From an uncultured Candidatus Saccharibacteria bacterium (GTDB taxonomy: Bacteria; Patescibacteriota; Saccharimonadia; Saccharimonadales; JAGQNJ01), in NCBI GenBank assembly GCA_964577565.1, contig CAZNZL010000001.1, forward strand, positions 334,566-398,565: 64,000 nt of DNA, given 5' to 3'. Made by a program: the position numbers and the translations under genes. The number at the start of each line of letters is the position of its first letter. The stretch's first letter is position 1. The notes under the pieces were generated by a model. It was given only the letters and a program-made list of their open reading frames with translations. It was not told where the DNA came from and searched no databases. Positions 6,392 through 17,314 of the stretch are shown here, one piece after another.

Positions 6392-9127
6392 CTACTTCTT
6401 GAACGAGGACTTAAGCTTCATAGTCCTTCGACTGAATGGAATCGGCCCACCTTCTAGGTGGTCGAGGGCCAACCGGTTGAGCTCGTGGCGTTCGAGCGAA
6501 CCTGATGCCTCGACCTCTCCATGACCAGCAGTCGCTTTCATTGTGACGATCTGCTCGGCATCTCCACTCACCACAATCCCAGGGCTTCGTGTTGCGAACA
6601 GATATTGCCGACTTCCCCGGAGGTCACGCAGACGGTCAACGAGGTACTCCTCAATCCAAGGGGCATGCAAGGCGTCTTCGGGTTGGTCGACTAGTACAGG
6701 CGTGTCCCCGTCAGCGAGCAGGATTACCAGGATGGCTGTGCAGCGTTGGCCATGAGCCAGCTCCTCTATCGCCGTGTACTGGTGATCGTCGGGCTTCTTG
6801 AACTTTATGGTGAGTACATCGGGGCGTTCGATAGTCTGCATCTCCAGGAGCTGCTCCCACATGTTCCGGTCGTCAATGTTGGCGAGAAGCTTCGCGACGC
6901 TGGTTGAGTCGATGCCGTGGGCTGTGTTAACGACTTCGTTGGGCGTCCCGAGCCAGAGGCTGCGTGAGAACTTGAGCGGACTAGTACGCAGCGCAAGTTG
7001 GTGAAGGAAGTCGTCCTTAACGCGTGATCCGACCTTGATCTCATCGAGTGCGTCACGGAAAGCCTTCGCGTCACCCTCATTGGGCACGTCCAGTTTGACA
7101 AACCCCGCAGCCTTTTCATTCAGCTGAAGCACGCGAGCCCGCCTCAGCTCCCGGCGCTCCTTGCGCGCTTCGTGGAGCACATCAATCATCTGTTCGCGTT
7201 GCTGTTCGAGTGTAGCTAGCGCAGGCTTAGCTTGCTCATCCAGCTCTTCCTTTGCGGCTTCGGCGTGGGTCAACTTCCCCTGGAGCTGTTCCAAACTGGC
7301 GCGTAAGGCGGTAAGCGAGGTTCCGTCGGGATCGACCTTCTCTAGCTCTTCGTCGAGCTTCGCCTTGAACTCAATGAACTTGGTAGACCATTGCTTCTCA
7401 ACCAGGCCGAGCTCGTCTGCCGCCTCGGTTAGACCCTTCTCGATAATCTCTAAGCCTTTGGCAACTTGCTCATCGAGCTTCGCAATGGCCTTGGAGGTTT
7501 GCCCAAACAGCTCCTTGTTCGACTCAACCTTGTGAGCGATCTCCGCGTTGGGCACCGCTAGCGTCGGAACTTCAAGTTGTTCGACACGTACTTTGACCTG
7601 CTGCAACGCCGTCTTCTCAGCTGCCCAGCTCGCCTGCTCTTTCACCGCGTCGGTCTTGAACACGTCACTAAGCTTCCGAACCTGCTCCTTAAGATCTGTC
7701 ACCCGTCCAGCATCGTCGGTCAGGCGAGAAACCCGATTACGAGCCGCAATCAACTTGGTGGCATTGGTTCGGAGCCCAGTTGTCGCTGCTGCGATTCGCT
7801 CGTTGATCTCGTCCAAGTCGAGCGCAGAATCGACCAGAGTCATACGGCCGACTGGCTCCCGCGAGTACTCGAGGATCTCGCCTTGCGAGAACGCTGCTAG
7901 AGGACACAGCACTGCCGGATCTACGTCTACGTCAGCCCAGTCTCCACTGGTCTGTTGAGAGACCTGTGCATTTGGGGATCCCGTGGGATCGAAAGTGCGC
8001 TCGATCTTGTAACGCTTGCCTTCGGCAACCAGAACAAGGCGAACAACACTCCCATTCATCAGTGCCTTTTCCATTCGCGAGTCAATCTCGTCACGTATGG
8101 CTGGGAATGAGTCGTGATCTACTTGCTGCTCAAGAGCGAACCGCACTGCCTCAAGGATCAACGACTTTCCCGTACCCGTGCCACCGAGAAGGCAGTTCAG
8201 GTCCGGCGAAAGGTCGATCTTTCCCCCGCCAAGGAACCCACCGATCAGCTCGACAGATTCGATCCGCGCATATGGCGGTGACAATGCTGGTTCTTCTAGA
8301 GTGATTCGCAAGGGAGGATCAGCCAGCGCATGGCGAACGCCTATCAGATCCGGCCGACTGGCCTTGATCCATGTCCGCCTCGCGCCGATGCCGGCAAGCG
8401 AGTGACAGCTGAGCGTTTCGTCCCATGTGTCGGATCCGCGCACGAAAGCCATCGTTCGCTCGTCAGCAATCTTGTTGTTGACATTGTCGATGGTGTCCAT
8501 GTGGACGACCTCGACCGCCGAAATCTGATCGCAAAGCAGAATCTTCTTTTGATGCGCCTTCACGCCAAGCTTTAAGAGACCCTTGGGCTTCTCGATATGG
8601 GCAGCAATAGCGATCCCACCTGCCTTGTCAACTTCAACGGCGGCTTGGGTGAACCCAACATCAGCCGCGATATCGAGCTTGCCTCGGTCCGCTTGTCCGA
8701 TGCCAAGGCGCACAAGCAACTCCTGGATCACCACTGGATCGACACCCTCTTCCCATATGGCGAGGAGGTGTCCTTCCGTAGTGCTGATCTCCACGCCTGG
8801 TAGGACAACTAGCGGACTTTCGGCAGCCGCATCGGCAATCCGCTTGCACCACGTTGCGGTGTTGTGGTCGGTGATCGCGATTGCATCTAGACCAGCGTCG
8901 ATCGCCGCCTGGACGATCTCCGCAGGAGTGCCATAGTGCTCCGGCTTGGCATCTTGCGATCCTGGGGTGTGCACATGGAAATCGACGGCCCAAAACCTTG
9001 CCCAGTCAGCTTTCACGATGCGCACCTTACATACTTCATCACACCCAATTATCACACTCTGCAGGCCCTCAGTCCGTTGCAGAATTCGCAACGCCGTCCG
9101 TCCGCAGCCACTTAGGCCAGCAGGCAA
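6392..9127 (-). CDS. PHP phosphoesterase domain fused to an SMC/Rad50/RecN-like coiled-coil ATPase (Ppl-like architecture)
   Basis: PHP motifs are WAVDFHVHTPGS, AIAITDHNT, GVEISTTEGH and AAHIEKP. Walker A LLGGTGTGKS lies at nt 8162-8185, followed by a long coiled-coil of about 270 aa. The C-terminus carries signature-like HGQR plus Walker B/D-loop VLVDQPEDALH. An alternative GTG start lies at 9025. Confidence 0.8.
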   Translation of the reverse strand: MPAGLSGCGRTALRILQRTEGLQSVIIGCDEVCKVRIVKADWARFWAVDFHVHTPGSQDAKPEHYGTPAEIVQAAIDAGLDAIAITDHNTATWCKRIADAAAESPLVVLPGVEISTTEGHLLAIWEEGVDPVVIQELLVRLGIGQADRGKLDIAADVGFTQAAVEVDKAGGIAIAAHIEKPKGLLKLGVKAHQKKILLCDQISAVEVVHMDTIDNVNNKIADERTMAFVRGSDTWDETLSCHSLAGIGARRTWIKASRPDLIGVRHALADPPLRITLEEPALSPPYARIESVELIGGFLGGGKIDLSPDLNCLLGGTGTGKSLILEAVRFALEQQVDHDSFPAIRDEIDSRMEKALMNGSVVRLVLVAEGKRYKIERTFDPTGSPNAQVSQQTSGDWADVDVDPAVLCPLAAFSQGEILEYSREPVGRMTLVDSALDLDEINERIAAATTGLRTNATKLIAARNRVSRLTDDAGRVTDLKEQVRKLSDVFKTDAVKEQASWAAEKTALQQVKVRVEQLEVPTLAVPNAEIAHKVESNKELFGQTSKAIAKLDEQVAKGLEIIEKGLTEAADELGLVEKQWSTKFIEFKAKLDEELEKVDPDGTSLTALRASLEQLQGKLTHAEAAKEELDEQAKPALATLEQQREQMIDVLHEARKERRELRRARVLQLNEKAAGFVKLDVPNEGDAKAFRDALDEIKVGSRVKDDFLHQLALRTSPLKFSRSLWLGTPNEVVNTAHGIDSTSVAKLLANIDDRNMWEQLLEMQTIERPDVLTIKFKKPDDHQYTAIEELAHGQRCTAILVILLADGDTPVLVDQPEDALHAPWIEEYLVDRLRDLRGSRQYLFATRSPGIVVSGDAEQIVTMKATAGHGEVEASGSLERHELNRLALDHLEGGPIPFSRRTMKLKSSFKK

Positions 9128-9200: not shown

Positions 9201-9276
9201 TGGTGCGGGTGACGAGACTCAAACTCGTGGCCTCTTCCTTGGCAAGGAAGCGCTCTATCAACTGAGCTACACCCGC
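9201..9276 (-). tRNA. tRNA-Gly (GCC)
   Basis: RC is gcgggtgtagctcagttgatagagcgcttccttGCCaaggaagaggccacgagtttgagtctcgtcacccgcacca. The cloverleaf folds by hand and CCA is encoded. Confidence 0.95.
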
Positions 9277-9460: not shown

Positions 9461-9751
9461 TTACAAGTCTTCAGATCCTTGAGGGGCATCATCCGACCTC
9501 TCTTTAATCCATTCTTGAAATTCTTTATCTGACATTTCCAGGGTGCGTAAAATGGTCTCTATCATCTCTGGCGCACCCTCAAACGTAACGGGGCTATCAC
9601 CTAAAGGTTCGAAGACGCTTGAAGGAATATAACCTTGACACCCAATTTGAACAGCCAGTCCTTCTCCACGCTCGAATCTATCGCTACACATCACGTTTAT
9701 CTTACCACAAATGAATTGGCTGATCAGGCCTCCCAGGGCTTCCTTCGGCAC
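9461..9751 (-). CDS. hypothetical protein
   Basis: 96-aa ORF between two tRNA genes. No motif recognised. Confidence 0.4.
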   Translation of the reverse strand: MPKEALGGLISQFICGKINVMCSDRFERGEGLAVQIGCQGYIPSSVFEPLGDSPVTFEGAPEMIETILRTLEMSDKEFQEWIKERSDDAPQGSEDL

Positions 9752-9819
9752 ATTTCAAAACTTTCTCGAAGCAAGCTGCTGCGCGTGCTCATCATGAACG
9801 AACTGCCCACTTCGTGGCA

Positions 9820-9832
9820 CCCAGTTCGAGTC
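9820..9832 (+). repeat. inverted 13-nt copy of the tRNA-Phe T-arm
   Basis: cccagttcgagtc on the plus strand equals the sense T-stem/loop of the minus-strand tRNA-Phe (complement at 9907-9919). Confidence 0.85.
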
Positions 9833-9860
9833 GTTAAGCAAAGACTAAACCCTAAGTAAA

Positions 9861-9890
9861 AGCCCCATCCATTAGGATGAGACTTTTACT
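9861..9890 (-). terminator. hairpin plus T-run after tRNA-Phe
   Basis: Minus sense reads aaaagtctcatcctaatggatggggcttttac, with stem catcc/ggatg followed by TTTT. Confidence 0.55.
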
Positions 9891-9891
9891 T

Positions 9892-9967
9892 TGGTGGCTC
9901 CTCCCAGACTCGAACTGGGGACACAAGGCTCTTCAGGCCTCTGCTCTACCAACTGAGCTAAAGAGCC
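9892..9967 (-). tRNA. tRNA-Phe (GAA)
   Basis: RC is ggctctttagctcagttggtagagcagaggcctGAAgagccttgtgtccccagttcgagtctgggaggagccacca, 76 nt. Confidence 0.95.
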
Positions 9968-11287: not shown

Positions 11288-11488
11288 ACCTGCTCCTTGT
11301 TTATAGTTAAAGTATAAATGAGATATTTGATTTTATGAATTTTTATTCTATCGGGATCTTGTAGGGGGTCCCCACAAAAACGCTAGGTTTAGTGGGGTAA
11401 AGGAGCGTCAACGAAGGCCTTGCCAAAAATATAACAACCTTGTTTTAGGGAAGTTATATTTCCAGCAAGGTAGTAGTTTGGTGCGACG

Positions 11489-11510
11489 TGGTGGGCGCTG
11501 AGGGACTCGA
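11489..11510 (-). repeat. orphan copy of the last 22 nt of tRNA-Val (T-loop to CCA)
   Basis: tggtgggcgctgagggactcga is identical to 11829-11850. No upstream cloverleaf is present. Confidence 0.9.
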
Positions 11511-11673
11511 CCTACCTTCGGCAGGCCCGGAGGTTCACGATTGGCAAGCCAGTTGCCATCGGAACATTCCCTTGCGGAATGCCACTGGCATTCCTCACCC
11601 CTCCCCTTGGAGTCGGGTGTTCGAGGCCACAATCGACAAACAAAAAGCCCATCCCGAGGATGGACTATTTGTT

Positions 11674-11689
11674 TGGTGGGCGCTGAGGG
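11674..11689 (-). repeat. orphan copy of the last 16 nt of tRNA-Val
   Basis: tggtgggcgctgaggg is identical to 11829-11844 and is followed on the minus strand by its own hairpin plus T-run (11642-11668). Confidence 0.9.
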
Positions 11690-11798
11690 GGCGGTTTCGC
11701 CTCTGCTCAACCCGCTGCGTCGCTTACTCTCCGCCAGCTGGCGAATGTGTGAGCTCCTTGCGAACGAACCCCAGGGTTCTCGTCCCTCAAAACCATAT

Positions 11799-11822
11799 AA
11801 AAAGCCCGTCATTGACGGACTC
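11799..11822 (-). terminator. hairpin plus T-run after tRNA-Val
   Basis: Minus sense reads agtccgtcaatgacgggcttttt. Confidence 0.6.
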
Positions 11823-11828
11823 TTTATA

Positions 11829-11905
11829 TGGTGGGCGCTGAGGGACTCGAACCCCCGACCCCTTCGGTGTAAACGAAGTGCTCTAGCCAGCTGAGCTAAG
11901 CGCCC
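11829..11905 (-). tRNA. tRNA-Val (TAC)
   Basis: RC is gggcgcttagctcagctggctagagcacttcgttTACaccgaaggggtcgggggttcgagtccctcagcgcccacca. Confidence 0.95.
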
Positions 11906-11941
11906 TAGACTGGAATATTATACGTATTATTTAACTATTTA

Positions 11942-12676
11942 TCAATACTGGTATTTTGTATGAACGTCATCATCCACACTACTTCGCATTGCCATCAGAA
12001 TTACCCATCCAGGGCCCTTTTCAGCGTAACGCATTGAGGTGCCTTCTGGTACTAAACCAGAGCCAACGAGCTCTAAGGTCATATTATCACTCACGCCAAA
12101 TATTCCTACTATACCTCGATAGGCGTCACTTTCTGCAAAACATTTATTTATAGCAAGTCCGCCAAGCTGTAACGACATACCCGCGTGAACCGCCTTGCTG
12201 TATTCTCGCGTGGCTATTGTTGCAAGTTCGTGGGGTAATACTGATTGATCATCAAGTGCCTTACGGCCAGCCTTGACTAACCGATGATCTACTTGATCGT
12301 TGTGGAGCGGATGAAGCCATGATATACCGTCAACAGAACCGTCTATATCATTGACGGCTATGTACAGTGTGCGCCCCCCTTTATCAATGAGAAACCGCTC
12401 CATAATTTCTTCAACGCTTCTAAAGCGAGTAAAATCGCCGTCATTTTCAGCTGCAACTACCGGTTCAGTCATAGTTCGATAATGCAGCCACTGAGCAACA
12501 ATTTCGGGCATCTCCTCCGTAGGCGTAAATACATATACGCTGTACCGAGTAGTGCCAGCGTTGTTTACAAGTTCAATACTATCTACGAGGTGATCGGCAA
12601 AATGGTCCCCTTTAATGGGGTCGGGGATTTTACATTCGAATTCGTGACTTTGTTCCATTTCTTTACTCACACCCAA
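11942..12676 (-). CDS. hypothetical protein
   Basis: 244-aa ORF. No firm motif, so it is left uncalled. Confidence 0.55.
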   Translation of the reverse strand: MGVSKEMEQSHEFECKIPDPIKGDHFADHLVDSIELVNNAGTTRYSVYVFTPTEEMPEIVAQWLHYRTMTEPVVAAENDGDFTRFRSVEEIMERFLIDKGGRTLYIAVNDIDGSVDGISWLHPLHNDQVDHRLVKAGRKALDDQSVLPHELATIATREYSKAVHAGMSLQLGGLAINKCFAESDAYRGIVGIFGVSDNMTLELVGSGLVPEGTSMRYAEKGPGWVILMAMRSSVDDDVHTKYQY

Positions 12677-12886
12677 CCTTTAATATTTAACTTTAACTAT
12701 TTTGTTGTGGTGCACCTGATGACAGGTGTCTTGAACCTTTAGAGAGTATATCTGACTGGCTATTAAGTAGTCCAGATATAGACTGGGTTTTACAGCTTAG
12801 AAATGCTTCATTATCTGGATTTGTACCACAGTACCAACTCTGATAAGGGCGTGTTATTACTCTCGCTAGAAGTCGTTTGAACCAAA

Positions 12887-13531
12887 TTACTCAGAGACGT
12901 AAAAGGTGTTCTGTGCTTCTTCTAGTAATTGAGGACGACCGAACTCGTCGGAGACCACCTCAACACCACGCTGCTCACAGTATTCAGCAATTTCATTTAC
13001 TCCACCCAGAACCGTTCTAACGGCGGTCTCAAGAGCGACAGCCTCGTCTTGAGTGGGTTTTTCTATGCTCACATCTCTACCAAGAGCTAACTCTACAAAT
13101 GGCTGATCAACTACAATGCCTTTCTTCCCGCTATCATTGGTTTCAATCGCACATATAGGTACATATTTCATAGTTGCAAACTTGAAGAACATATCTCCAA
13201 TCGCACCACTATCTGCTTCAACCTCACCAGCGTAACCCTTTGCAGACTCTTCGAGACACAGACTGTATTTACCGTCTTTCATATTAGGCGTCACACTAAA
13301 ATCGGTACGTAAGTCAGGCTCAGTTTCGGTTGCTGGCTCACCATTTCGCAAAGTAGTGCTTATTGCTCGGAAAAGCATGTCATCACCGAGTATTTTTGTG
13401 CTAAATGCACCCAATGCTTCTGCTAGTACTGCCTTTTTCAGGTCAATATCAAAGTCACCATTATCTTGTGGGATTGGTTCACGTGGTTCTGTCATGGGGT
13501 ACATATTAGCATAATTACTTTGTATTGTCAA
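12887..13531 (-). CDS. hypothetical protein (acidic)
   Basis: 214-aa ORF. No motif recognised. Confidence 0.55.
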   Translation of the reverse strand: MTIQSNYANMYPMTEPREPIPQDNGDFDIDLKKAVLAEALGAFSTKILGDDMLFRAISTTLRNGEPATETEPDLRTDFSVTPNMKDGKYSLCLEESAKGYAGEVEADSGAIGDMFFKFATMKYVPICAIETNDSGKKGIVVDQPFVELALGRDVSIEKPTQDEAVALETAVRTVLGGVNEIAEYCEQRGVEVVSDEFGRPQLLEEAQNTFYVSE

Positions 13532-13693
13532 TAGTTCTTATGCTGTTACTGTGTCGCACAATAAGTATTGTGAGTCAGTACCTAACAGGGGTAGAGCCCG
13601 TTTTTTAGCGACATAGGTGCTTGTCAAGTGCTAGTGTTATTTTCGCCCACCCCTGTTAAATAACATATTATACAATAATGCGATTTGCAGATT

Positions 13694-14788
13694 CTAAATG
13701 TCGTTGCACGAAGGAATGACACCCTTATATGCTTGCTCAAATTGAACGGTTTCTGCTGAACGGCAAGCGTCATAAATACTCTCCTGCACAGCCCTAGCAG
13801 CAGCATGACCAATAATATCTACTTGCGTATATAAGCTGTCCTCTACCTCCTGGAAGTATTGCAGCATACTATTAAATGGATTCTTTAGTTCGCCTGTACT
13901 AAATACAAAAACAGTATCACCGTCAGACGAAGTATGTACAGGATTTATCGCACGTACTTGTCCATGTGAAGCAAGGTGGGCCACTTTCTCTAGATGCAGC
14001 TTCGCCCCTAAGTCTACGTTGATACCTACAACCGAGATAGTTGTATTAGCCCTATCTTGGGTTACGAATTCAATAAGATTTTCGTACGGCTTAAACTTCG
14101 TTTCTTCATCTCTATTTCCCGCAAGCACTTCTCCATTAGGCAAGATGATGTTGCCCAATGAGTTAACCACCGACAATGCACAAACAATAATTCCATTGCC
14201 TAGGTCTACACGAGCAGAGCCAACACCAGCCTTCATAGCACTTGTTTTCGTACCACCCTCTACCCAACGGAACTTACCAACCGAAGTACCAGTTCCAGCC
14301 CCAACATTGCCACTAGCTACTGGCTCCGTATTAGCACTTTCGTATGCTTCACGACCATACACAGGATCGTAGGGTGCAACTTGCATTCCTTGGTCGTAAA
14401 CTATTGCTCCCACAACAGACGGATTATAAATATCCTTGTTCTTACCCGAAACAGAGCCAACTTTGTCTCGTCGCATACACCCCATAATCTCAGAAGCCGA
14501 CATTAAGCCCGTATTGCTTCCGCCAGCAATAAATATTCCTCGTTCTCCATAGTTGGTCTTATCTGCTTTATTTGCTTCAGTCCCAAATGCACCCACAGCA
14601 CCACCATAAGCTTTATATGCAACTTGATACGGTTTATCAAAAAGAATTACAGTGCAGCCAGTTAGCTTATCTAAGTGTGTAGAGTGTCCTACTTTTACGC
14701 CATGTAGGGCTGTAAGTGTATTGTTTTGCATAGTCTTATGCATAGCAGGGAAAAACAGGAATAGCACGGATGTAGCAATTAAGCTCAA
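13694..14788 (-). CDS. S58 (DmpA / P1 family) aminopeptidase
   Basis: LHGVKVGHSTHLDKLTGCTVILF...NVGAGTGTSVGKF...INPVHTSSDGDTVF is the typical DmpA-family pattern. The start is uncertain (TTG 14788 or an internal ATG). Confidence 0.75.
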   Translation of the reverse strand: MSLIATSVLFLFFPAMHKTMQNNTLTALHGVKVGHSTHLDKLTGCTVILFDKPYQVAYKAYGGAVGAFGTEANKADKTNYGERGIFIAGGSNTGLMSASEIMGCMRRDKVGSVSGKNKDIYNPSVVGAIVYDQGMQVAPYDPVYGREAYESANTEPVASGNVGAGTGTSVGKFRWVEGGTKTSAMKAGVGSARVDLGNGIIVCALSVVNSLGNIILPNGEVLAGNRDEETKFKPYENLIEFVTQDRANTTISVVGINVDLGAKLHLEKVAHLASHGQVRAINPVHTSSDGDTVFVFSTGELKNPFNSMLQYFQEVEDSLYTQVDIIGHAAARAVQESIYDACRSAETVQFEQAYKGVIPSCNDI

Positions 14789-14977
14789 AACCCCGTCCTA
14801 GACGCTCTCCGTAGGTCCTAGAGGGCATCCAAATCGGTTCACTATTTAGCCTTGAAATTACTCCAGTTGGTGGTTCCAAATCTTTTTCCCATATTTCTGA
14901 CCGTCAACGCCGTTTTTCGCCGTATATTGTTCTTACCATATCTGACAGCAAAACTCTTAAAAACTATGCAAATGCGA

Positions 14978-15217
14978 CTAGTTAATCTGGAATGGTGTCA
15001 GGAAACTAAACACAACCTTATCCTGGTTGCTGTGAGCTTTCTCCATCTTCTCTGCGAACACTTTGTTACTTAAGTGGCGATAGTAAGTATCACGACTTAT
15101 TCCTGCATACCTACACGCCTCCCCAATAGTGCTATTGTGTTGGATCGAGTCAGCCAGCATCATCATAACCGTATAATTAACCTTAGAGGGTCTGCCTTCG
15201 GCTCTTTTGTATACCAT
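14978..15217 (-). CDS. small helix-turn-helix DNA-binding protein
   Basis: AAGGAG RBS. RAEGRPSKVNY...STIGEACRYAGISRDTYYRHL resembles resolvase/terminase-small-type HTH. It is divergent from the recombinase. Confidence 0.6.
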   Translation of the reverse strand: MVYKRAEGRPSKVNYTVMMMLADSIQHNSTIGEACRYAGISRDTYYRHLSNKVFAEKMEKAHSNQDKVVFSFLTPFQIN

Positions 15218-15280
15218 ATTTACTCCTTTTGGTTTTTGCGGATACCTCTATTCTTATTATCTCAAAACAACAATTTTAAC

Positions 15281-15309
15281 TTGACAATTCTTAAGCATAA
15301 GCGTATAAT
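15281..15309 (+). promoter_or_regulatory. consensus sigma70-type promoter
   Basis: TTGACA (15281-86), a 17-nt spacer, then TATAAT (15304-09). It lies 345 nt upstream of the recombinase ATG. Confidence 0.6.
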
Positions 15310-15659
15310 TAGAAGTACGATAGTGAGTGTCTTGGTGTCATAGAACACATACACACTTGCTTTAGGACTTCCCACCCCTTAGTCGATGTTGTCCTCGATA
15401 ACTTGTCGAGACACATTGGGCTAAGAGATTGATGATCCATCGAATATCCAACTAGTATCAGACGAAACAAGCCCACAGCTAGAAGCGGTGGGTGCTTTTG
15501 GTGTCCACAACAAAAAGACACAAGATATAGACGACGGGCTAATAGAATATGCAGATGCCCTTGAAGCTATAGACGAAAATAACCCGTTAGCCGAACTAAA
15601 TGCGGTGTCAATGTCCGACAACAATGGTGGTCGTATCTTCTACTAATACAAGCTAAAAT

Positions 15660-17249
15660 ATGTTCATGGTACTAGACGAAGAAATTGACCGTACTAAGTT
15701 ACGGTATGTGCTTTATGCTCGTAGGTCTACTACTGATGAAGGTAGTCAGGTTCGTTCTGTACCCGACCAAATCAAGTATTGCAAACGTCACGCCGAAATA
15801 GGGGGGCTAAACATAGTAGCTACGGTTAAGGAAAAAGGTTCAGCCAAGAAGCCAAATATAAAAATACGACCTAAATTTTACGAGTTACTTGATGAAATAG
15901 AGCACGGTGGTAAGTACGATGCTATTCTTTCGTATGCACCGGACAGACTCTCACGCAATATGCTGGACGGTGGTCGTATCATCAACCTACTGGATGAAGG
16001 AAAGATAAAAGACCTGCAATTTCCAACACATCACTTTACTAACGATCCATCTGGAAAACTCACGCTAGGTATCATGTTCTCTATATCTAAGCACTTTTCC
16101 GACGACCTATCTCAAAAGGTTCGTAGAGGGGTATCAGGAAACTGGGAAGAGGGTAAATCAGGGGGCCAACCTAAATGGGGCTATGACCGTGAACCAGATG
16201 GACGTTATCGTCCTAATGAGTGGTTTGATACTGTACAAGAAGCATGGTACATGAGAGCAAGAGGTGCAACAAACAAGATGGTGCTCGATTACTTGCTTGA
16301 GAAGGGCTACCACCGAATGACGAAAATCACGAGAAAGAATAAGAAAACAAAGAAGATACTGCCGACCGAAAAGAGTGTAGGAAATTTGTTCCGTGACCCA
16401 TTCTATTTCGGTATGCTTGAACAAACTCAACAAAATATAGACCTACGCACCGTACAATTAGACTTTGAGCCGATGATAGACGAGGAAATATATAACCAAG
16501 TCCAAGCTCTAGCTTATACTAGAAAGCGAGATATTGACCCCAAGAAAAGGACTGAATTCAAGCCCCTTAGACACTTAGTCTATTGTGGTGTTTGCAAGAG
16601 TGAAAAGTGTATGTCTGTAGGTAAGAATAAGCCAGGGGGTAGCAAACATCTTGTACTGTCATACGAGTGCAAAAACCCTGATTGTACTCGAAAACCTAAA
16701 TCCGTTAGAGCCAAGTTCATCTTTGACGGTATTTACGAGCTACTAGAGAAATTAGAGCTGTCAGACGAAGCGTACGAACGCTACAGCAAACGTATTGACA
16801 GCTTCACTGACGATAAGATTATCAAGATTAAACAAGAAATCTCTAGTAAGAGGGGTGCTTACGCACACAAGAAGAAAGAGCTTGATGAATTGTCGCTCGG
16901 ACTAGGCAAAATTAGCCGTAATTCGCCAGCTTATGTAATAAACGAGAGCAGGATTAACGAGCTGGCAATTGAAACTCAAGATTTAGAAGATGAGATAGAA
17001 AAGCGTAAAGCAAAAATTGCTAATCCGAGCAAAATAAAGCTGACCAAAGAGCAGTTCTTGAACCTCGTAAAATTAGCTCCTGACAAGATGAGAGCGGGTT
17101 CAGCAGTCGAAAAAGACCGTGTCGCACGGATATTATTCTTGAACCTAACCGTAGACAATGAAAAAAGGGTCTATCCTATCTGGAAAGAACCCTTTGCAAG
17201 CCTGGTAAAGGCCATTGAAATGTCGTCTGGTGCGGACGAAAGGACTTGA
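15660..17249 (+). CDS. large serine recombinase (integrase type)
   Basis: The N-terminal resolvase catalytic domain reads YVLYARRSTTDEGSQVRSVPDQ. A recombinase domain follows. Zinc ribbon CGVCKSEKC...YECKNPDC is followed by a C-terminal coiled-coil. Confidence 0.85.
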   Translation: MFMVLDEEIDRTKLRYVLYARRSTTDEGSQVRSVPDQIKYCKRHAEIGGLNIVATVKEKGSAKKPNIKIRPKFYELLDEIEHGGKYDAILSYAPDRLSRNMLDGGRIINLLDEGKIKDLQFPTHHFTNDPSGKLTLGIMFSISKHFSDDLSQKVRRGVSGNWEEGKSGGQPKWGYDREPDGRYRPNEWFDTVQEAWYMRARGATNKMVLDYLLEKGYHRMTKITRKNKKTKKILPTEKSVGNLFRDPFYFGMLEQTQQNIDLRTVQLDFEPMIDEEIYNQVQALAYTRKRDIDPKKRTEFKPLRHLVYCGVCKSEKCMSVGKNKPGGSKHLVLSYECKNPDCTRKPKSVRAKFIFDGIYELLEKLELSDEAYERYSKRIDSFTDDKIIKIKQEISSKRGAYAHKKKELDELSLGLGKISRNSPAYVINESRINELAIETQDLEDEIEKRKAKIANPSKIKLTKEQFLNLVKLAPDKMRAGSAVEKDRVARILFLNLTVDNEKRVYPIWKEPFASLVKAIEMSSGADERT

Positions 17250-17314
17250 ACCTTCACAGGATTGCTCCCACTGGCCCCTCAAGCCAGCGCGTCTACCAAT
17301 TCCGCCACGTCCGC
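17228..17314 (-). tRNA. tRNA-Leu (GAG)
   Basis: RC is gcggacgtggcggaattggtagacgcgctggcttGAGgggccagtgggagcaatcctgtgaaggttcaagtcctttcgtccgcacca. It has a long variable arm. Confidence 0.95.

Follow-up and report, generated by a model that had tools for sequence, protein, structure and literature searches.

Compact structured RNA cassettes with tRNA 3' tails behind a tRNA-Val gene of a Saccharibacteria genome

The 3' end of a tRNA-Val gene in this Saccharibacteria genome recurs twice in the DNA downstream of it, each time without the rest of the gene and with GC-rich sequence in between. Are these orphan tRNA ends the scars of integrated elements, or are they parts of RNAs? An earlier note on this DNA leaned to two decayed integrase-borne elements in tandem and gave RNAs with tRNA-like 3' tails as the alternative. 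Here the locus is examined within a window of 64,000 nucleotides, the whole stretch of DNA that was analysed, and against related Saccharibacteria and metagenome loci, to which handles such as L002 refer. The reading that we favor, with a probability of roughly 0.55, is that tRNA-Val is followed by two compact "tRNA-trailer cassettes", each of four parts with a core of about 75-87 nt, which would have arisen by insertion or duplication, with copying of cores between sites and expression by read-through.

Organization of the locus behind tRNA-Val

The whole set of features lies on the minus strand, tRNA-Val(TAC) first and two units after it. In 5' to 3' order on that strand these are:

11917-11945, minus: sigma-70-like promoter (TTGATA, 17-nt spacer, TATAAT) directly 5' of tRNA-Val, 11 of 12 consensus matches
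11829-11905, minus: tRNA-Val(TAC), intact, CCA end encoded (ARAGORN; Rfam tRNA model, 67.3 bits)
11796-11828, minus: terminator-like hairpin 1 and U-run (inverted repeats, fold, reading of the sequence)
11774-11795, minus: leader A (TGGTTTTGAGGGACGAGAACCC), the 3' end and T arm of tRNA-Val copied in reverse complement
11691-11764, minus: core of unit A, "family 2" (nhmmer, alignment, fold z-score)
11674-11689, minus: tail A (CCCTCAGCGCCCACCA), identical to the final 16 nt of tRNA-Val
11637-11673, minus: terminator-like hairpin 2 and U-run (consensus terminator scan)
11612-11628, minus: leader B (GGCCTCGAACACCCGAC), reverse complement of the T arm
11511-11597, minus: core of unit B, "core 1" (covariance model CM R1, 154.6 bits; covariation)
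11489-11510, minus: tail B, identical to the final 22 nt of tRNA-Val (from T-loop position 55 through CCA)
11479-11488, minus: CGTCGCACCA, possible remnant of a tRNA-Leu(GAG) 3' end (10-nt match only)
11418-11470, minus: AT-rich hairpin without a U-run, between the stack and the promoter of an SPFH gene

Read on the plus strand, the last 22 nt of tRNA-Val are TGGTGGGCGCTGAGGGACTCGA, and this sequence recurs exactly at 11489-11510. The 16-nt end occurs in three exact copies in the 64 kb, whereas dinucleotide shuffles gave a mean of 0.37 matches to the 16-mer with up to three mismatches permitted. The two exact copies that the earlier note had pointed out, this one and the 16-nt copy at 11674-11689, are thus far above chance. 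The repeats in the window start 155 and 185 nt apart. The surroundings were also described correctly: a hairpin and T-run follow both the tRNA (11796-11828) and the copy at 11674 (11637-11673), a hairpin without a T-run follows the copy at 11489 (arms 11418-11435 and 11453-11470), and the GC content is 0.53-0.62 over 11450-11850 vs 0.25-0.47 in the flanks. The filler between the repeats had been called unique, which does not hold, since it contains reverse complements of the T arm (11774-11789 and 11609-11628) as well as two conserved RNA cores.

Each unit consists of a terminator-like hairpin, an antisense T-arm leader, a core within a partial T-loop and a tRNA tail. As inverted repeats, 16 nt of leader A are 88% complementary to 11839-11854 and 20 nt of leader B are 85% complementary to 11843-11862. 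The stem of hairpin 1 reaches into the ACCA end of tRNA-Val, and the 3' half of the tRNA and leader A form one long palindrome with hairpin 1 (the terminator loop) at its center. In unit B two pairings of the leader are possible, one between its CACCC and the GGGUG of the core's 5' junction, the other between its GGCCTCGA and TCGAGTCC 3' of the core. The consensus terminator scan lists hairpin 2 on the minus strand (11666-11646 plus a T-run); hairpin 1 (11828-11796, then CUUUUUAUAU) is unlisted by that scan and comes from the fold and from reading of the sequence. By consensus and fold matches only, both are predicted intrinsic terminators, a GC-rich hairpin being followed by a U-run. A consensus scan found no promoter-like site inside the stack. 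Cassettes downstream of a tRNA, referred to as type a units, sit behind a good terminator-like hairpin, and this together with the lack of an internal promoter-like site means that their expression would need read-through.

At this locus the only tRNA cloverleaf called by ARAGORN and the Rfam tRNA model is tRNA-Val itself at 11829-11905; neither unit is called, and no Rfam family scores above threshold on the units. Between the repeats the tRNA strand has a single open reading frame of at least 60 aa (11408-11812, 134 aa), and a Pfam scan of this frame gave no match; the opposite strand has two 117-aa frames there. A protein-coding reading was rejected on the grounds that this frame runs across the units without a Pfam match and that the stem substitutions described below are compensatory. 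A Logan contig (L001), an independent assembly, is identical to the window wherever the two overlap, and an exact-protein look-up with the flanking genes returned a single short contig, an identical one. At 11479-11488, the third CCA-type end (CGTCGCACCA) differs from the 3' end of the window's tRNA-Leu(GAG) (CGTCCGCACCA) by one deleted base, which verifies the earlier observation. The gene order Val, unit B, Leu(GAG) is found in two relatives (L012 and L004), and from the 10-nt match only these bases may be a remnant of the tRNA-Leu(GAG) 3' end.

Two families of structured cores

The core of unit B lies between the T-stem 5' strand with U54 and T-loop position 55. In order, it consists of UGAG, hairpin P1 with a GCC-NGU-GGC tip, GCAAG, a long hairpin P2 with a CUUG loop, CGGG, and hairpin P3 with a GAA loop. 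Across the family 93.5% of cells are paired, vs 71.9% in shuffled and 32-44% in slid controls, and there are 791 double-change cells vs 215 when shuffled; compensatory changes are found in 8 of 8 P1 pairs and 17 of 17 P2 pairs. One G.U pair is kept in 86 of 100 core 1 sequences, which argues for an RNA on the minus strand, that of the tRNA. The pairs with the highest mutual information are all pairs of the model, and the same scan gave no extra pairs or pseudoknot beyond P1-P3. Conservation is concentrated in the junction and loop nucleotides of the three-hairpin fold, not at the ends of the element. The pattern used to gather the metagenome loci holds the GCAAGG linker and parts of P1 constant, so the apparent sequence conservation in these parts is inflated and the covariation is unaffected. 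Two further pairings were set aside: an acceptor-stem mimic, in which RNAalifold pairs GGGUG with the tail in the Val units, is merely the T stem across other tRNAs and is not general, and the leader pairing as a conserved helix is lost in L002 and L015.

Core 1 represents a three-hairpin RNA family that is widespread and has no entry in Rfam release 15. Rfam runs covered the window and, within it, the region and the core by itself, as well as 19 related loci; all that they yielded was tRNAs and a sub-threshold RtT alignment, which is discussed in the last section. Unit B had no match at gathering or lax thresholds, and there was no match to self-cleaving ribozymes or group I/II introns up to E = 10 with lax filters over 160 nt and 711 nt. 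No description of core 1 or of the cassette modules was found in the literature searched. The earlier note had held that conservation of the units as a known RNA family would speak against its view; the units are indeed conserved in relatives, but they belong to no known family. Its alternative of RNAs with tRNA-like 3' tails gains support at the level of structural selection.

The core of unit A belongs to a second family that is distinct from core 1 and has the layout of E. coli RtT. Sense GGGGTTCG (11764-11771, the T-stem 5' strand with the first T-loop bases) precedes the inserted core, and the T-stem 3' strand comes after it. The nhmmer match to family 2 covers 11679-11771, the family alignment (A6, 14 members) has compensatory changes in 5 of 8 predicted pairs, and the fold of the core has a z-score of -4.2. 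A third, decayed cassette of the same kind follows tRNA-Phe (9892-9967):

9717-9891, minus: third cassette, whole
9854-9891, minus: terminator hairpin
9820-9832, minus: antisense T-arm leader
9737-9798, minus: family 2 core
9717-9736, minus: tail, a decayed tRNA-Phe 3' end

Distribution and origin of the cassettes

More than 100 loci from Saccharibacteria or metagenomes have core 1, and the tRNAs next to it are of at least 18 anticodon types. CM R1 gave 24 strong matches among 80 Saccharibacteria loci and 101 matches at E <= 1e-12 among 100 sources (99 metagenome loci and the window, with unit B included), and nhmmer gave 159 core 1 matches across 127 loci. Phage and plasmid collections held no match to unit B. 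In viral contigs the core pattern matched five times, never at E <= 1e-5 with the covariance model, and nhmmer gave weak partial matches only (E about 5e-4) in two of the five.

The flanks of the cores come from the local tRNA. The 3' tail of a unit is the 3' end of the tRNA upstream of it, as seen with Val, Gly, Leu (several), Lys, Ala, Arg, Gln, Ser, Met, Ile, Glu and Trp, and in a second arrangement (type b) the 5' flank is the 5' part of the tRNA downstream and each copy has its own TATAAT box. Other copies lie at D-arm or variable-loop junctions, and in L077 and L026 cores run antisense to the tRNA copy; L038 and L044 have units without a T-loop insert. In all units inspected the host copy is a partial tRNA only, with an intact gene of the same tRNA adjoining. 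A tail copy lies within 700 nt of 70 of 259 tRNAs; by a stricter count (last 16 nt, at most one mismatch) 49 of 66 copies are 100-199 nt downstream, 7 are at 200-299 nt and only 6 are beyond 700 nt. Cassette size is tight across the loci examined, about 140-200 nt. In the inspected units the antisense leader is clear, but only 20 of 67 units give an ungapped match of at least 13/17, and in L002 and L015 no leader can be made out. The tail is not always maintained, being decayed in several loci (L002, L004, L012 and L009).

Sites are occupied in some genomes and empty in others. Unit B stands directly after tRNA-Val and its terminator in L002, L015, L024, L031 and L036, and the tRNA-Val site is empty, with 79-123 nt of intergenic sequence, in L005, L014, L022, L025 and L045. 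In the closest relative, L002, a tRNA-Val identical to that of the window is followed by the window's second terminator and then by unit B only; hairpin 2 corresponds to the sole tRNA-Val terminator of L002. The window has an extra 185 nt compared with L002, namely unit A, bounded by tRNA-tail repeats; recombination between these repeats could equally have removed unit A from L002. The AT-rich hairpin at 11418-11470 is absent from L002. The unit B cores of the window and L002 are 69% identical, with eight double compensatory pair changes and with unpaired positions better conserved than paired ones. L031 has one core after tRNA-Leu and another before tRNA-Val that match base for base over 89 nt although their flanks are unrelated, leader-plus-core copies in L162 are identical over 135 nt, and the terminator is duplicated along with the tail in L030 and L024. 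Vertical descent by tRNA type was rejected, as the nearest neighbors of the cores share the type in only 8 of 33 cases. Judged from these sequences, the empty and occupied sites, the tight size, the identical cores and the extra unit A suggest that insertion or duplication took place serially, at the T-loop and 3' end of the tRNA. The serial insertion envisaged in the earlier note is to that extent supported, by the lack of unit A in L002, by the empty sites in relatives and by the integrated element at tRNA-Leu(GAG) described below, but what is stacked are small RNA modules and not decayed islands.

In the favored reading, insertion or duplication at the T-loop and 3' end would happen again and again, and each time a cassette would form that brings a fresh tRNA 3' end and terminator and displaces the old 3' end downstream, so that the newest cassette would adjoin the tRNA. 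The core of about 88 nt would itself be copied between tRNA-derived contexts. Units would be expressed by read-through from the tRNA promoter and the transcript may be trimmed to the CCA tail, by analogy with RtT (RF00391) of the E. coli tyrT/tyrV loci, which is reported to be a discrete RNA released from the tRNA primary transcript and trimmed to the CCA tail. A further-reaching idea, which we put forward only tentatively, is that core 1 is a new class of mobile structured RNA, ribozyme-, guide- or intron-like, that homes to tRNA genes and is a relative of RtT. The module (UGAG...GGUGA, about 88 nt) would copy into tRNA sequence at one of three places, the D-arm, the T-loop (54/55) or the variable loop (47/48); the intact tRNA would be regenerated and a partial copy left, and the antisense leader and tail would be footprints of the event. 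On that view RtT of E. coli, which has long been known but lacks an explanation, would be a related case of this phenomenon.

It is conceivable, though we think it unlikely, that the cassettes are inert mobile DNA, moved into T-loops by a recombinase or transposase that is encoded elsewhere, with hairpins that serve in DNA or single-stranded DNA recognition and with no role as RNA. Sites that are present or absent between genomes, identical copies within one genome, a discrete cassette size and the position of downstream cassettes behind terminators all fit this explanation. The window also holds a real 4.5-kb integrated element at the neighboring tRNA-Leu(GAG), with a large serine recombinase and a displaced partial tRNA-Leu, and relatives of the recombinase are found near tRNA clusters in L015, L020, L030 and L044. 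However, such relatives are present in only 4 other loci of about 205, and a linkage of the cassettes to this recombinase was rejected, the two being unlinked in about 200 loci. The conservation of junction and loop nucleotides of the fold rather than of element ends, the conserved G.U pair, the strand-specificity of the fold and the retention of the fold through eight compensatory changes between the window and L002 also speak against inert DNA. Type b copies, judging from the TATAAT box in front of them, would be transcribed. Terminal inverted repeats and target-site duplications are absent, and none of the latter flanks the copies that are identical over 89 nt. The 4.5-kb element, standing at the equivalent position of tRNA-Leu(GAG), and the span of the direct repeats from T-loop to CCA are what favor the earlier note's main idea, that two large integrase-borne islands entered the 3' end of tRNA-Val in succession and decayed. 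We consider that very improbable: no recombinase or gene remnant lies between the tRNA-Val tail repeats, where the 134-aa frame has no Pfam match, the length of the units is fixed at ~140-200 nt in dozens of independent loci where random deletion would spread it, full-size elements ending in cores at the same site are absent from the loci examined, and the filler is conserved structured RNA with compensatory changes.

Switching of the template during replication at hairpins is an established mechanism, and here it could act at the terminator and T arm to leave a tandem inversion duplication in trimmed form, so that neither a dedicated mechanism nor a function would be involved. The tRNA 3' half, hairpin 1 and leader A make up one palindrome around the terminator loop, which favors such an event, and the terminators duplicated with the tail in L030 and L024 and the units without a T-loop insert in L038 and L044 are also in keeping with it. 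We give it a small chance as the whole explanation: it may account for the origin of the flanks but not for the modules, leaving unexplained the conserved covarying cores, the presence of the same core beside at least 18 tRNA kinds and the cores identical over 89 nt in unrelated flanks. The location of the cores in the T-loop, D-arm or variable loop of tRNA sequence could also bring to mind introns or intervening sequences, with a functional tRNA precursor from which they are cut out. This is hardly credible, as every host copy inspected is partial and adjoins an intact gene of the same tRNA, the cores bear no likeness to Rfam intron or ribozyme families, and some of them are antisense to the tRNA copy (L077, L026). 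A 2026 paper on tRNA introns of Patescibacteria describes group I introns at position 35/36 only.

The genomes of Saccharibacteria are very small, yet this compact and strongly covarying RNA fold is present in them in many copies, each time within pieces of a tRNA gene whose intact version adjoins. The same pattern fits E. coli RtT, for which neither origin nor role has been clear since the 1970s-90s. Should the modules be mobile, they would rank among elements as unusually small, with essential RNA genes as targets that are left intact. Should they be functional trailer RNAs, the small RNAs linked to tRNAs would gain a new class, in a phylum of the uncultivated majority. The cassettes also explain "orphan tRNA 3' ends" that annotation pipelines may misread as integration scars or pseudo-tRNAs.

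Comparison with known systems

The att repeats of tRNA islands, among them the arrays of partial tRNA copies that serial integration leaves behind, share with the units of the window a direct repeat of the tRNA 3' end from the T-loop, regeneration of the intact tRNA, distal displacement of the older copy and stacking. At tRNA-Val there is such a tRNA 3' direct repeat with the intact tRNA proximal, and between the repeats there is no recombinase or remnant, no cargo and no element of kilobase size. Unlike att-bounded islands, the units are 155-185 nt long and encode no protein, the cassette size is fixed across loci with a conserved covarying RNA fold as content, and copies are also found upstream with the tRNA 5' part, at D-arm and variable-loop junctions and in antisense. 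They differ from MITEs as well, since the ends of the core (UGAG... and ...GGUGA) are not inverted repeats.

Short mobile inserts are known in structured RNA genes and include the intervening sequences of 23S rRNA helices, the Rickettsia palindromic elements and the transposed tRNA introns of Thermoproteales. Like them, the cassettes place a short structured insert, here of about 90 nt, in the loops of an RNA gene, and they have near-identical copies at different sites of one genome. Unlike them, the host is a non-functional partial copy beside an intact gene, and neither a bulge-helix-bulge motif nor a long closing stem of the RNase III type is evident. Rfam detected none of these three families in the units.

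The comparison with RtT is closest for unit A. The RtT model aligns with it over its full length (11674-11804, model positions 1-130), at 17.3 bits vs an Rfam gathering threshold of 45 (E = 0.3-1.4), and gives no match at E <= 10 on other members of family 2; by eye, unit A and RtT share the short words CGCCAGC, GAGAG and AAGCGnCGCAGCG. The core of unit B is unrelated to RtT. The window also differs from RtT in that the tRNA is Val and not Tyr, the organism belongs to Patescibacteria and not Proteobacteria, and the two units have different cores instead of being one repeat in tandem. In E. coli there are three 178-nt repeats, each with a 22-nt leader that is 86% complementary to the T arm of tRNA-Tyr, followed by sense AAGGTTCGA, the core and a tRNA-Tyr tail. 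The units of the window have the same placement, directly 3' of a tRNA gene on the same strand, and the same serial stacking. In both, the T-arm-complementary leader is followed by a sense T-arm fragment and a GC-rich structured core within the T-loop, and the unit ends in an exact copy of the tRNA 3' end that includes the CCA.

Two cassettes downstream of tRNA-Val

The source of the window is a Candidatus Saccharibacteria (TM7, Patescibacteria), and the SPFH protein encoded beside the stack is 98% identical to a homologue from a Saccharibacteria MAG. The stack of tRNA 3'-end copies is best read as two small tRNA-trailer RNA cassettes on the plan of the E. coli RtT repeats, with cores that are best understood as functional RNAs or, at a minimum, as RNAs under structural selection. 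All of the relevant features of the stack are carried on the minus strand of the window.

Features of the stack, in order of reading
11945-11917, minus: strong sigma-70-like promoter (sequence scan)
11905-11829, minus: tRNA-Val(TAC) (tRNA calls)
11828-11796, minus: hairpin 1 and U-run, directly 3' of tRNA-Val
11789-11774, minus: leader A, UGAGGGACGAGAACCC, reverse complement of the tRNA-Val T arm, in the 5' part of unit A
11689-11674, minus: tail A, exact copy of the final 16 nt of tRNA-Val, end of unit A
11673-11637, minus: hairpin 2 and U-run, between units A and B
11628-11609, minus: leader B, reverse complement of the tRNA-Val T arm (inverted-repeat search)
11510-11489, minus: tail B, exact copy of the final 22 nt of tRNA-Val, end of unit B
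11488-11479, minus: 10-mer CGTCGCACCA directly after tail B, a tRNA-Leu-like end as judged from a single 10-nt match and the gene order in two compared loci (L012 and L004)
Beyond the 10-mer, minus: AT-rich hairpin, then the promoter and start (11287) of the SPFH gene

The earlier note described repeats of the tRNA-Val 3' end separated by unique GC-rich filler. The description of the repeats is correct, as the 16-mer is present in three exact copies (shuffled sequences gave a mean of 0.37 matches even when three mismatches were allowed), the GC content is 0.53-0.62 within the stack and 0.25-0.47 in both flanks, and the identical sequence is present in an independent assembly over the part covered. 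The filler did not prove to be unique and holds antisense T-arm copies and structured cores. Downstream of its leader, unit A continues with a sense T-arm piece (GGGGUUCG), a 74-nt core, the 3' strand of the T-stem, and the acceptor strand to CCA. Unit B has a small hairpin after its leader, then the 5' strand of the T-stem plus U (GGGGU), the 87-nt core, and tRNA sequence running from T-loop position 55 to CCA. The two units therefore copy part of the tRNA, its 3' portion, with the T-loop broken by a structured insert and an antisense copy of the T arm placed ahead. Both units are more stable than shuffled sequence upon folding (z-scores of -4.2 and -3.6). The antisense leader was clear by eye in the units inspected, and only 20 of 67 units gave an ungapped match of at least 13/17. 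Expression would occur via read-through of the terminator-like hairpins and trimming to the CCA tail, and the leader may also have a role.

Conservation of the unit B core

Eighty loci around the SPFH gene were taken from Saccharibacteria genomes, and in many of these tRNA-Val lies just 5' of the gene with either a short or a long intervening gap. The short gaps (79-123 nt; L005, L014, L022, L025, and L045) have the order tRNA, terminator, gene, and the long gaps (L002, L015, L024, L031, and L036) contain one or two copies of clear unit B relatives. Compensatory changes were observed at 22 of 41 predicted pairs in an alignment of seven unit B sequences, and the covariance model built from this alignment gave 24 strong matches in the 80 loci, some of them after tRNA-Gly(GCC), tRNA-Leu(TAA), and tRNA-Leu(GAG) besides tRNA-Val. 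The 3' tail of the unit B relatives in these loci is in every case the 3' end of the neighbouring tRNA. Metagenome contigs scanned with the invariant pattern yielded at least 120 loci, collected by pattern and without taxonomic assignment. When the model was run on 100 sources (99 metagenome loci and the window) it returned 101 matches, one of which is the window unit B. Viral contigs gave five pattern matches, none at the covariance-model cut-off, no unit B match was found in the phage and plasmid collections, and Rfam release 15 contained no family similar to unit B even with lax filters.

The 100 distinct sequences of this core family (core 1) have standard pairs in 93.5% of pair cells versus 71.9% when shuffled and 32-44% with slid partners, and double changes in 791 cells versus 215 expected, with covariation at all pairs of hairpins P1 (8/8) and P2 (17/17). 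One G.U pair is retained in 86 of the 100, which points to an RNA read from the minus strand of the window. A mutual-information scan of core 1 detected no pairs outside the three hairpins. Single-stranded bases are conserved at the 5' edge (G-UGA), between P1 and P2 (GCAAG), and before P3 (CGGG), as are the loops of P2 (CUUG) and P3 (GAA); this base conservation is partly forced by the search pattern but the covariation is not. A sub-type of core 1 (L198, L178, L145, L153, and L138) has P2 swapped for a different element, CCGGAAGCCGGAUGACGAAUGUCACCGACUGAGGCGG, and a much longer P3.

Between the window and its closest relative, L002, unit B differs at 35% of the paired positions and at only 17% of the unpaired ones, with 8 double compensatory changes and unrelated leaders. 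This divergence pattern suggests that the fold has been under selection in situ. That the cassettes are purely selfish DNA is plausible for their spread but is a poor fit with the RNA-like pattern of conservation.

Insertion sites, sizes, and turnover

The tRNAs adjoining core 1 are of at least 18 anticodon types, and clustering of the cores does not follow tRNA type. In one arrangement an intact tRNA is followed ~60-95 nt downstream on the same strand by the core and then the tRNA tail. In the other, the core lies upstream of the intact tRNA, with a copy of the 5' part of that tRNA ahead of it and a short further tRNA piece and spacer after it; the partial copy and the intact gene each have a separate TATAAT box. 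Flanks were classified automatically, and no type was assigned to 63 of the 124 cores, which often lie at contig ends. The junctions are in the T-loop (54/55), the variable loop (47/48), and after the D arm or in the D-loop, invariably after G. Core 1 is antisense to a partial tRNA-Phe copy in four loci (L077 4785-4935, L026 1997-2145, L094, and L188), with the real tRNA-Phe adjoining on the other strand, so its orientation relative to the tRNA sequence is not fixed. In five loci (L096, L103, L138, L140 at ~1230-1420, and L201) the core lies within partial copies of a hairpin RNA (AAAGAGCCUACGGAGGGGGUGGGCACCGCCGUAGGCUCUUU, a GGAGAC...GUCUCC hairpin, then CACCCUUCAACCCACC) beside an intact copy; this RNA had no match in Rfam. 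Introns would also place cores within host sequences, but the inspected host copies are partial with an intact gene alongside.

Tandem cores, head to tail and without tRNA sequence between them, occur in L109, L112, L116, L159, L181, L190, and L200. Three units lie in L162, separated by more than 1 kb; for two of them, leader and core together are identical over 135 nt, and no intact tRNA was called by ARAGORN in their vicinity. In L031, the cores after tRNA-Leu(GAG) and before tRNA-Val are identical over 89 nt (beginning GAGG|UGAGG and ending GGUGA) in unrelated flanks, and therefore the core alone can be copied, or converted, between contexts. Flanks arising as template-switch duplications may account for the sense-antisense-sense order, but this leaves the cores unexplained.

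The final 15 nt are repeated within 700 nt downstream for 70 of 259 tRNAs in all loci compared. A stricter count (final 16 nt, at most one mismatch) placed 49 copies at 100-199 nt, 7 at 200-299 nt, and only 6 beyond 700 nt, which indicates discrete small cassettes and not islands at various stages of decay. Of the serial integration of decayed elements proposed in the earlier note, insertion or duplication that recurred at the T-loop and 3' end fits, but decayed large islands fit poorly with both this size distribution and the content of the units. Smaller inserts (~30-40 nt, mostly simple hairpins) were observed in the T-loop of partial copies after tRNA-Gly(GCC) in L014, L039, L066, and L077, and after tRNA-Phe in L038 and L044 the T arm of the partial copies is uninterrupted and the leader is antisense to the anticodon arm.

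Recurrent insertion or duplication at the tRNA T-loop and 3' end would have made the small cassettes, in the direction of gain and not loss. Orthologous sites are empty, singly, or doubly occupied depending on the genome. In L002 the tRNA-Val is identical and is followed by a terminator matching the second terminator of the window and then by unit B only; the tail repeats delimit the window surplus of 185 nt, which comprises the first terminator, leader A, core A, and tail A. The surplus fits insertion of unit A beside the tRNA with the older unit pushed outward, and it is equally possible that L002 lost unit A via recombination between tail repeats. A larger insertion is found nearby.

Features of the neighbouring element
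12708-12740: displaced partial tRNA-Leu (AAAGGTTCAAG...CACCA; AAAGGTTCAAGACACCTGTCATCAGGTGCACCA)
15660-17249, plus: large serine recombinase, 529 aa (Resolvase and Recombinase domains), abutting the tRNA-Leu(GAG) 3' end
17228-17314: tRNA-Leu(GAG), its 3' end meeting the recombinase gene

The region 12708-17249, which also encodes a peptidase S58, looks like an element integrated at the tRNA-Leu T-loop and 3' end. The 4.5 kb separating tRNA-Leu(GAG) from the displaced partial tRNA-Leu is absent from L002, and together with the displaced copy this indicates that insertion at tRNA T-loops and 3' ends occurs in the lineage. Relatives of the recombinase were found in only 4 other loci of ~205, so a tie to the small cassettes is not supported. 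A 911-aa protein adjoining tRNA-Gly (9201-9276) is encoded at 6392-9127 on the minus strand and, from its domains (PHP, AAA_23, and AbiEii-like AAA_21), may be a defence-type nuclease/ATPase.

Unit A and the E. coli tyrT repeats

The unit A core is a member of a second family. Eight similar units were used to build a profile, which matched 17 places, including unit A and a third, decayed window cassette (9717-9891, minus) after tRNA-Phe (9892-9967). This third cassette has a terminator hairpin, a leader antisense to the T arm (GACTCGAACTGGG), a family-2 core, and a tRNA-Phe tail that has decayed (CTGGGAGGCCTGATCAGCCA). The insertion point is after the T-loop GGUUCG, and the tRNA resumes at the T-stem 3' strand. 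The central hairpin, CnCnC-rCAG-RAGC-UUGC-UYCGAG-nAnG, has compensatory changes at 5 of 8 predicted pairs (14 sequences).

RtT (RF00391) is the sole Rfam model that aligns full-length to unit A. Membership of unit A in RF00391 is not supported, as the score of 17.3 bits is below the threshold of 45 and the model did not detect the other family-2 members. The E. coli tyrT locus, read directly, contains three 178-nt repeats, each composed of a 22-nt leader (86% complementary to the tRNA-Tyr T arm), a sense AAGGTTCGA, a GC-rich core, and the final 19 nt of tRNA-Tyr. This layout of leader, sense T-arm, core, and tRNA tail is common to the E. coli repeats and the window units, which makes RtT the closest known thing to them.
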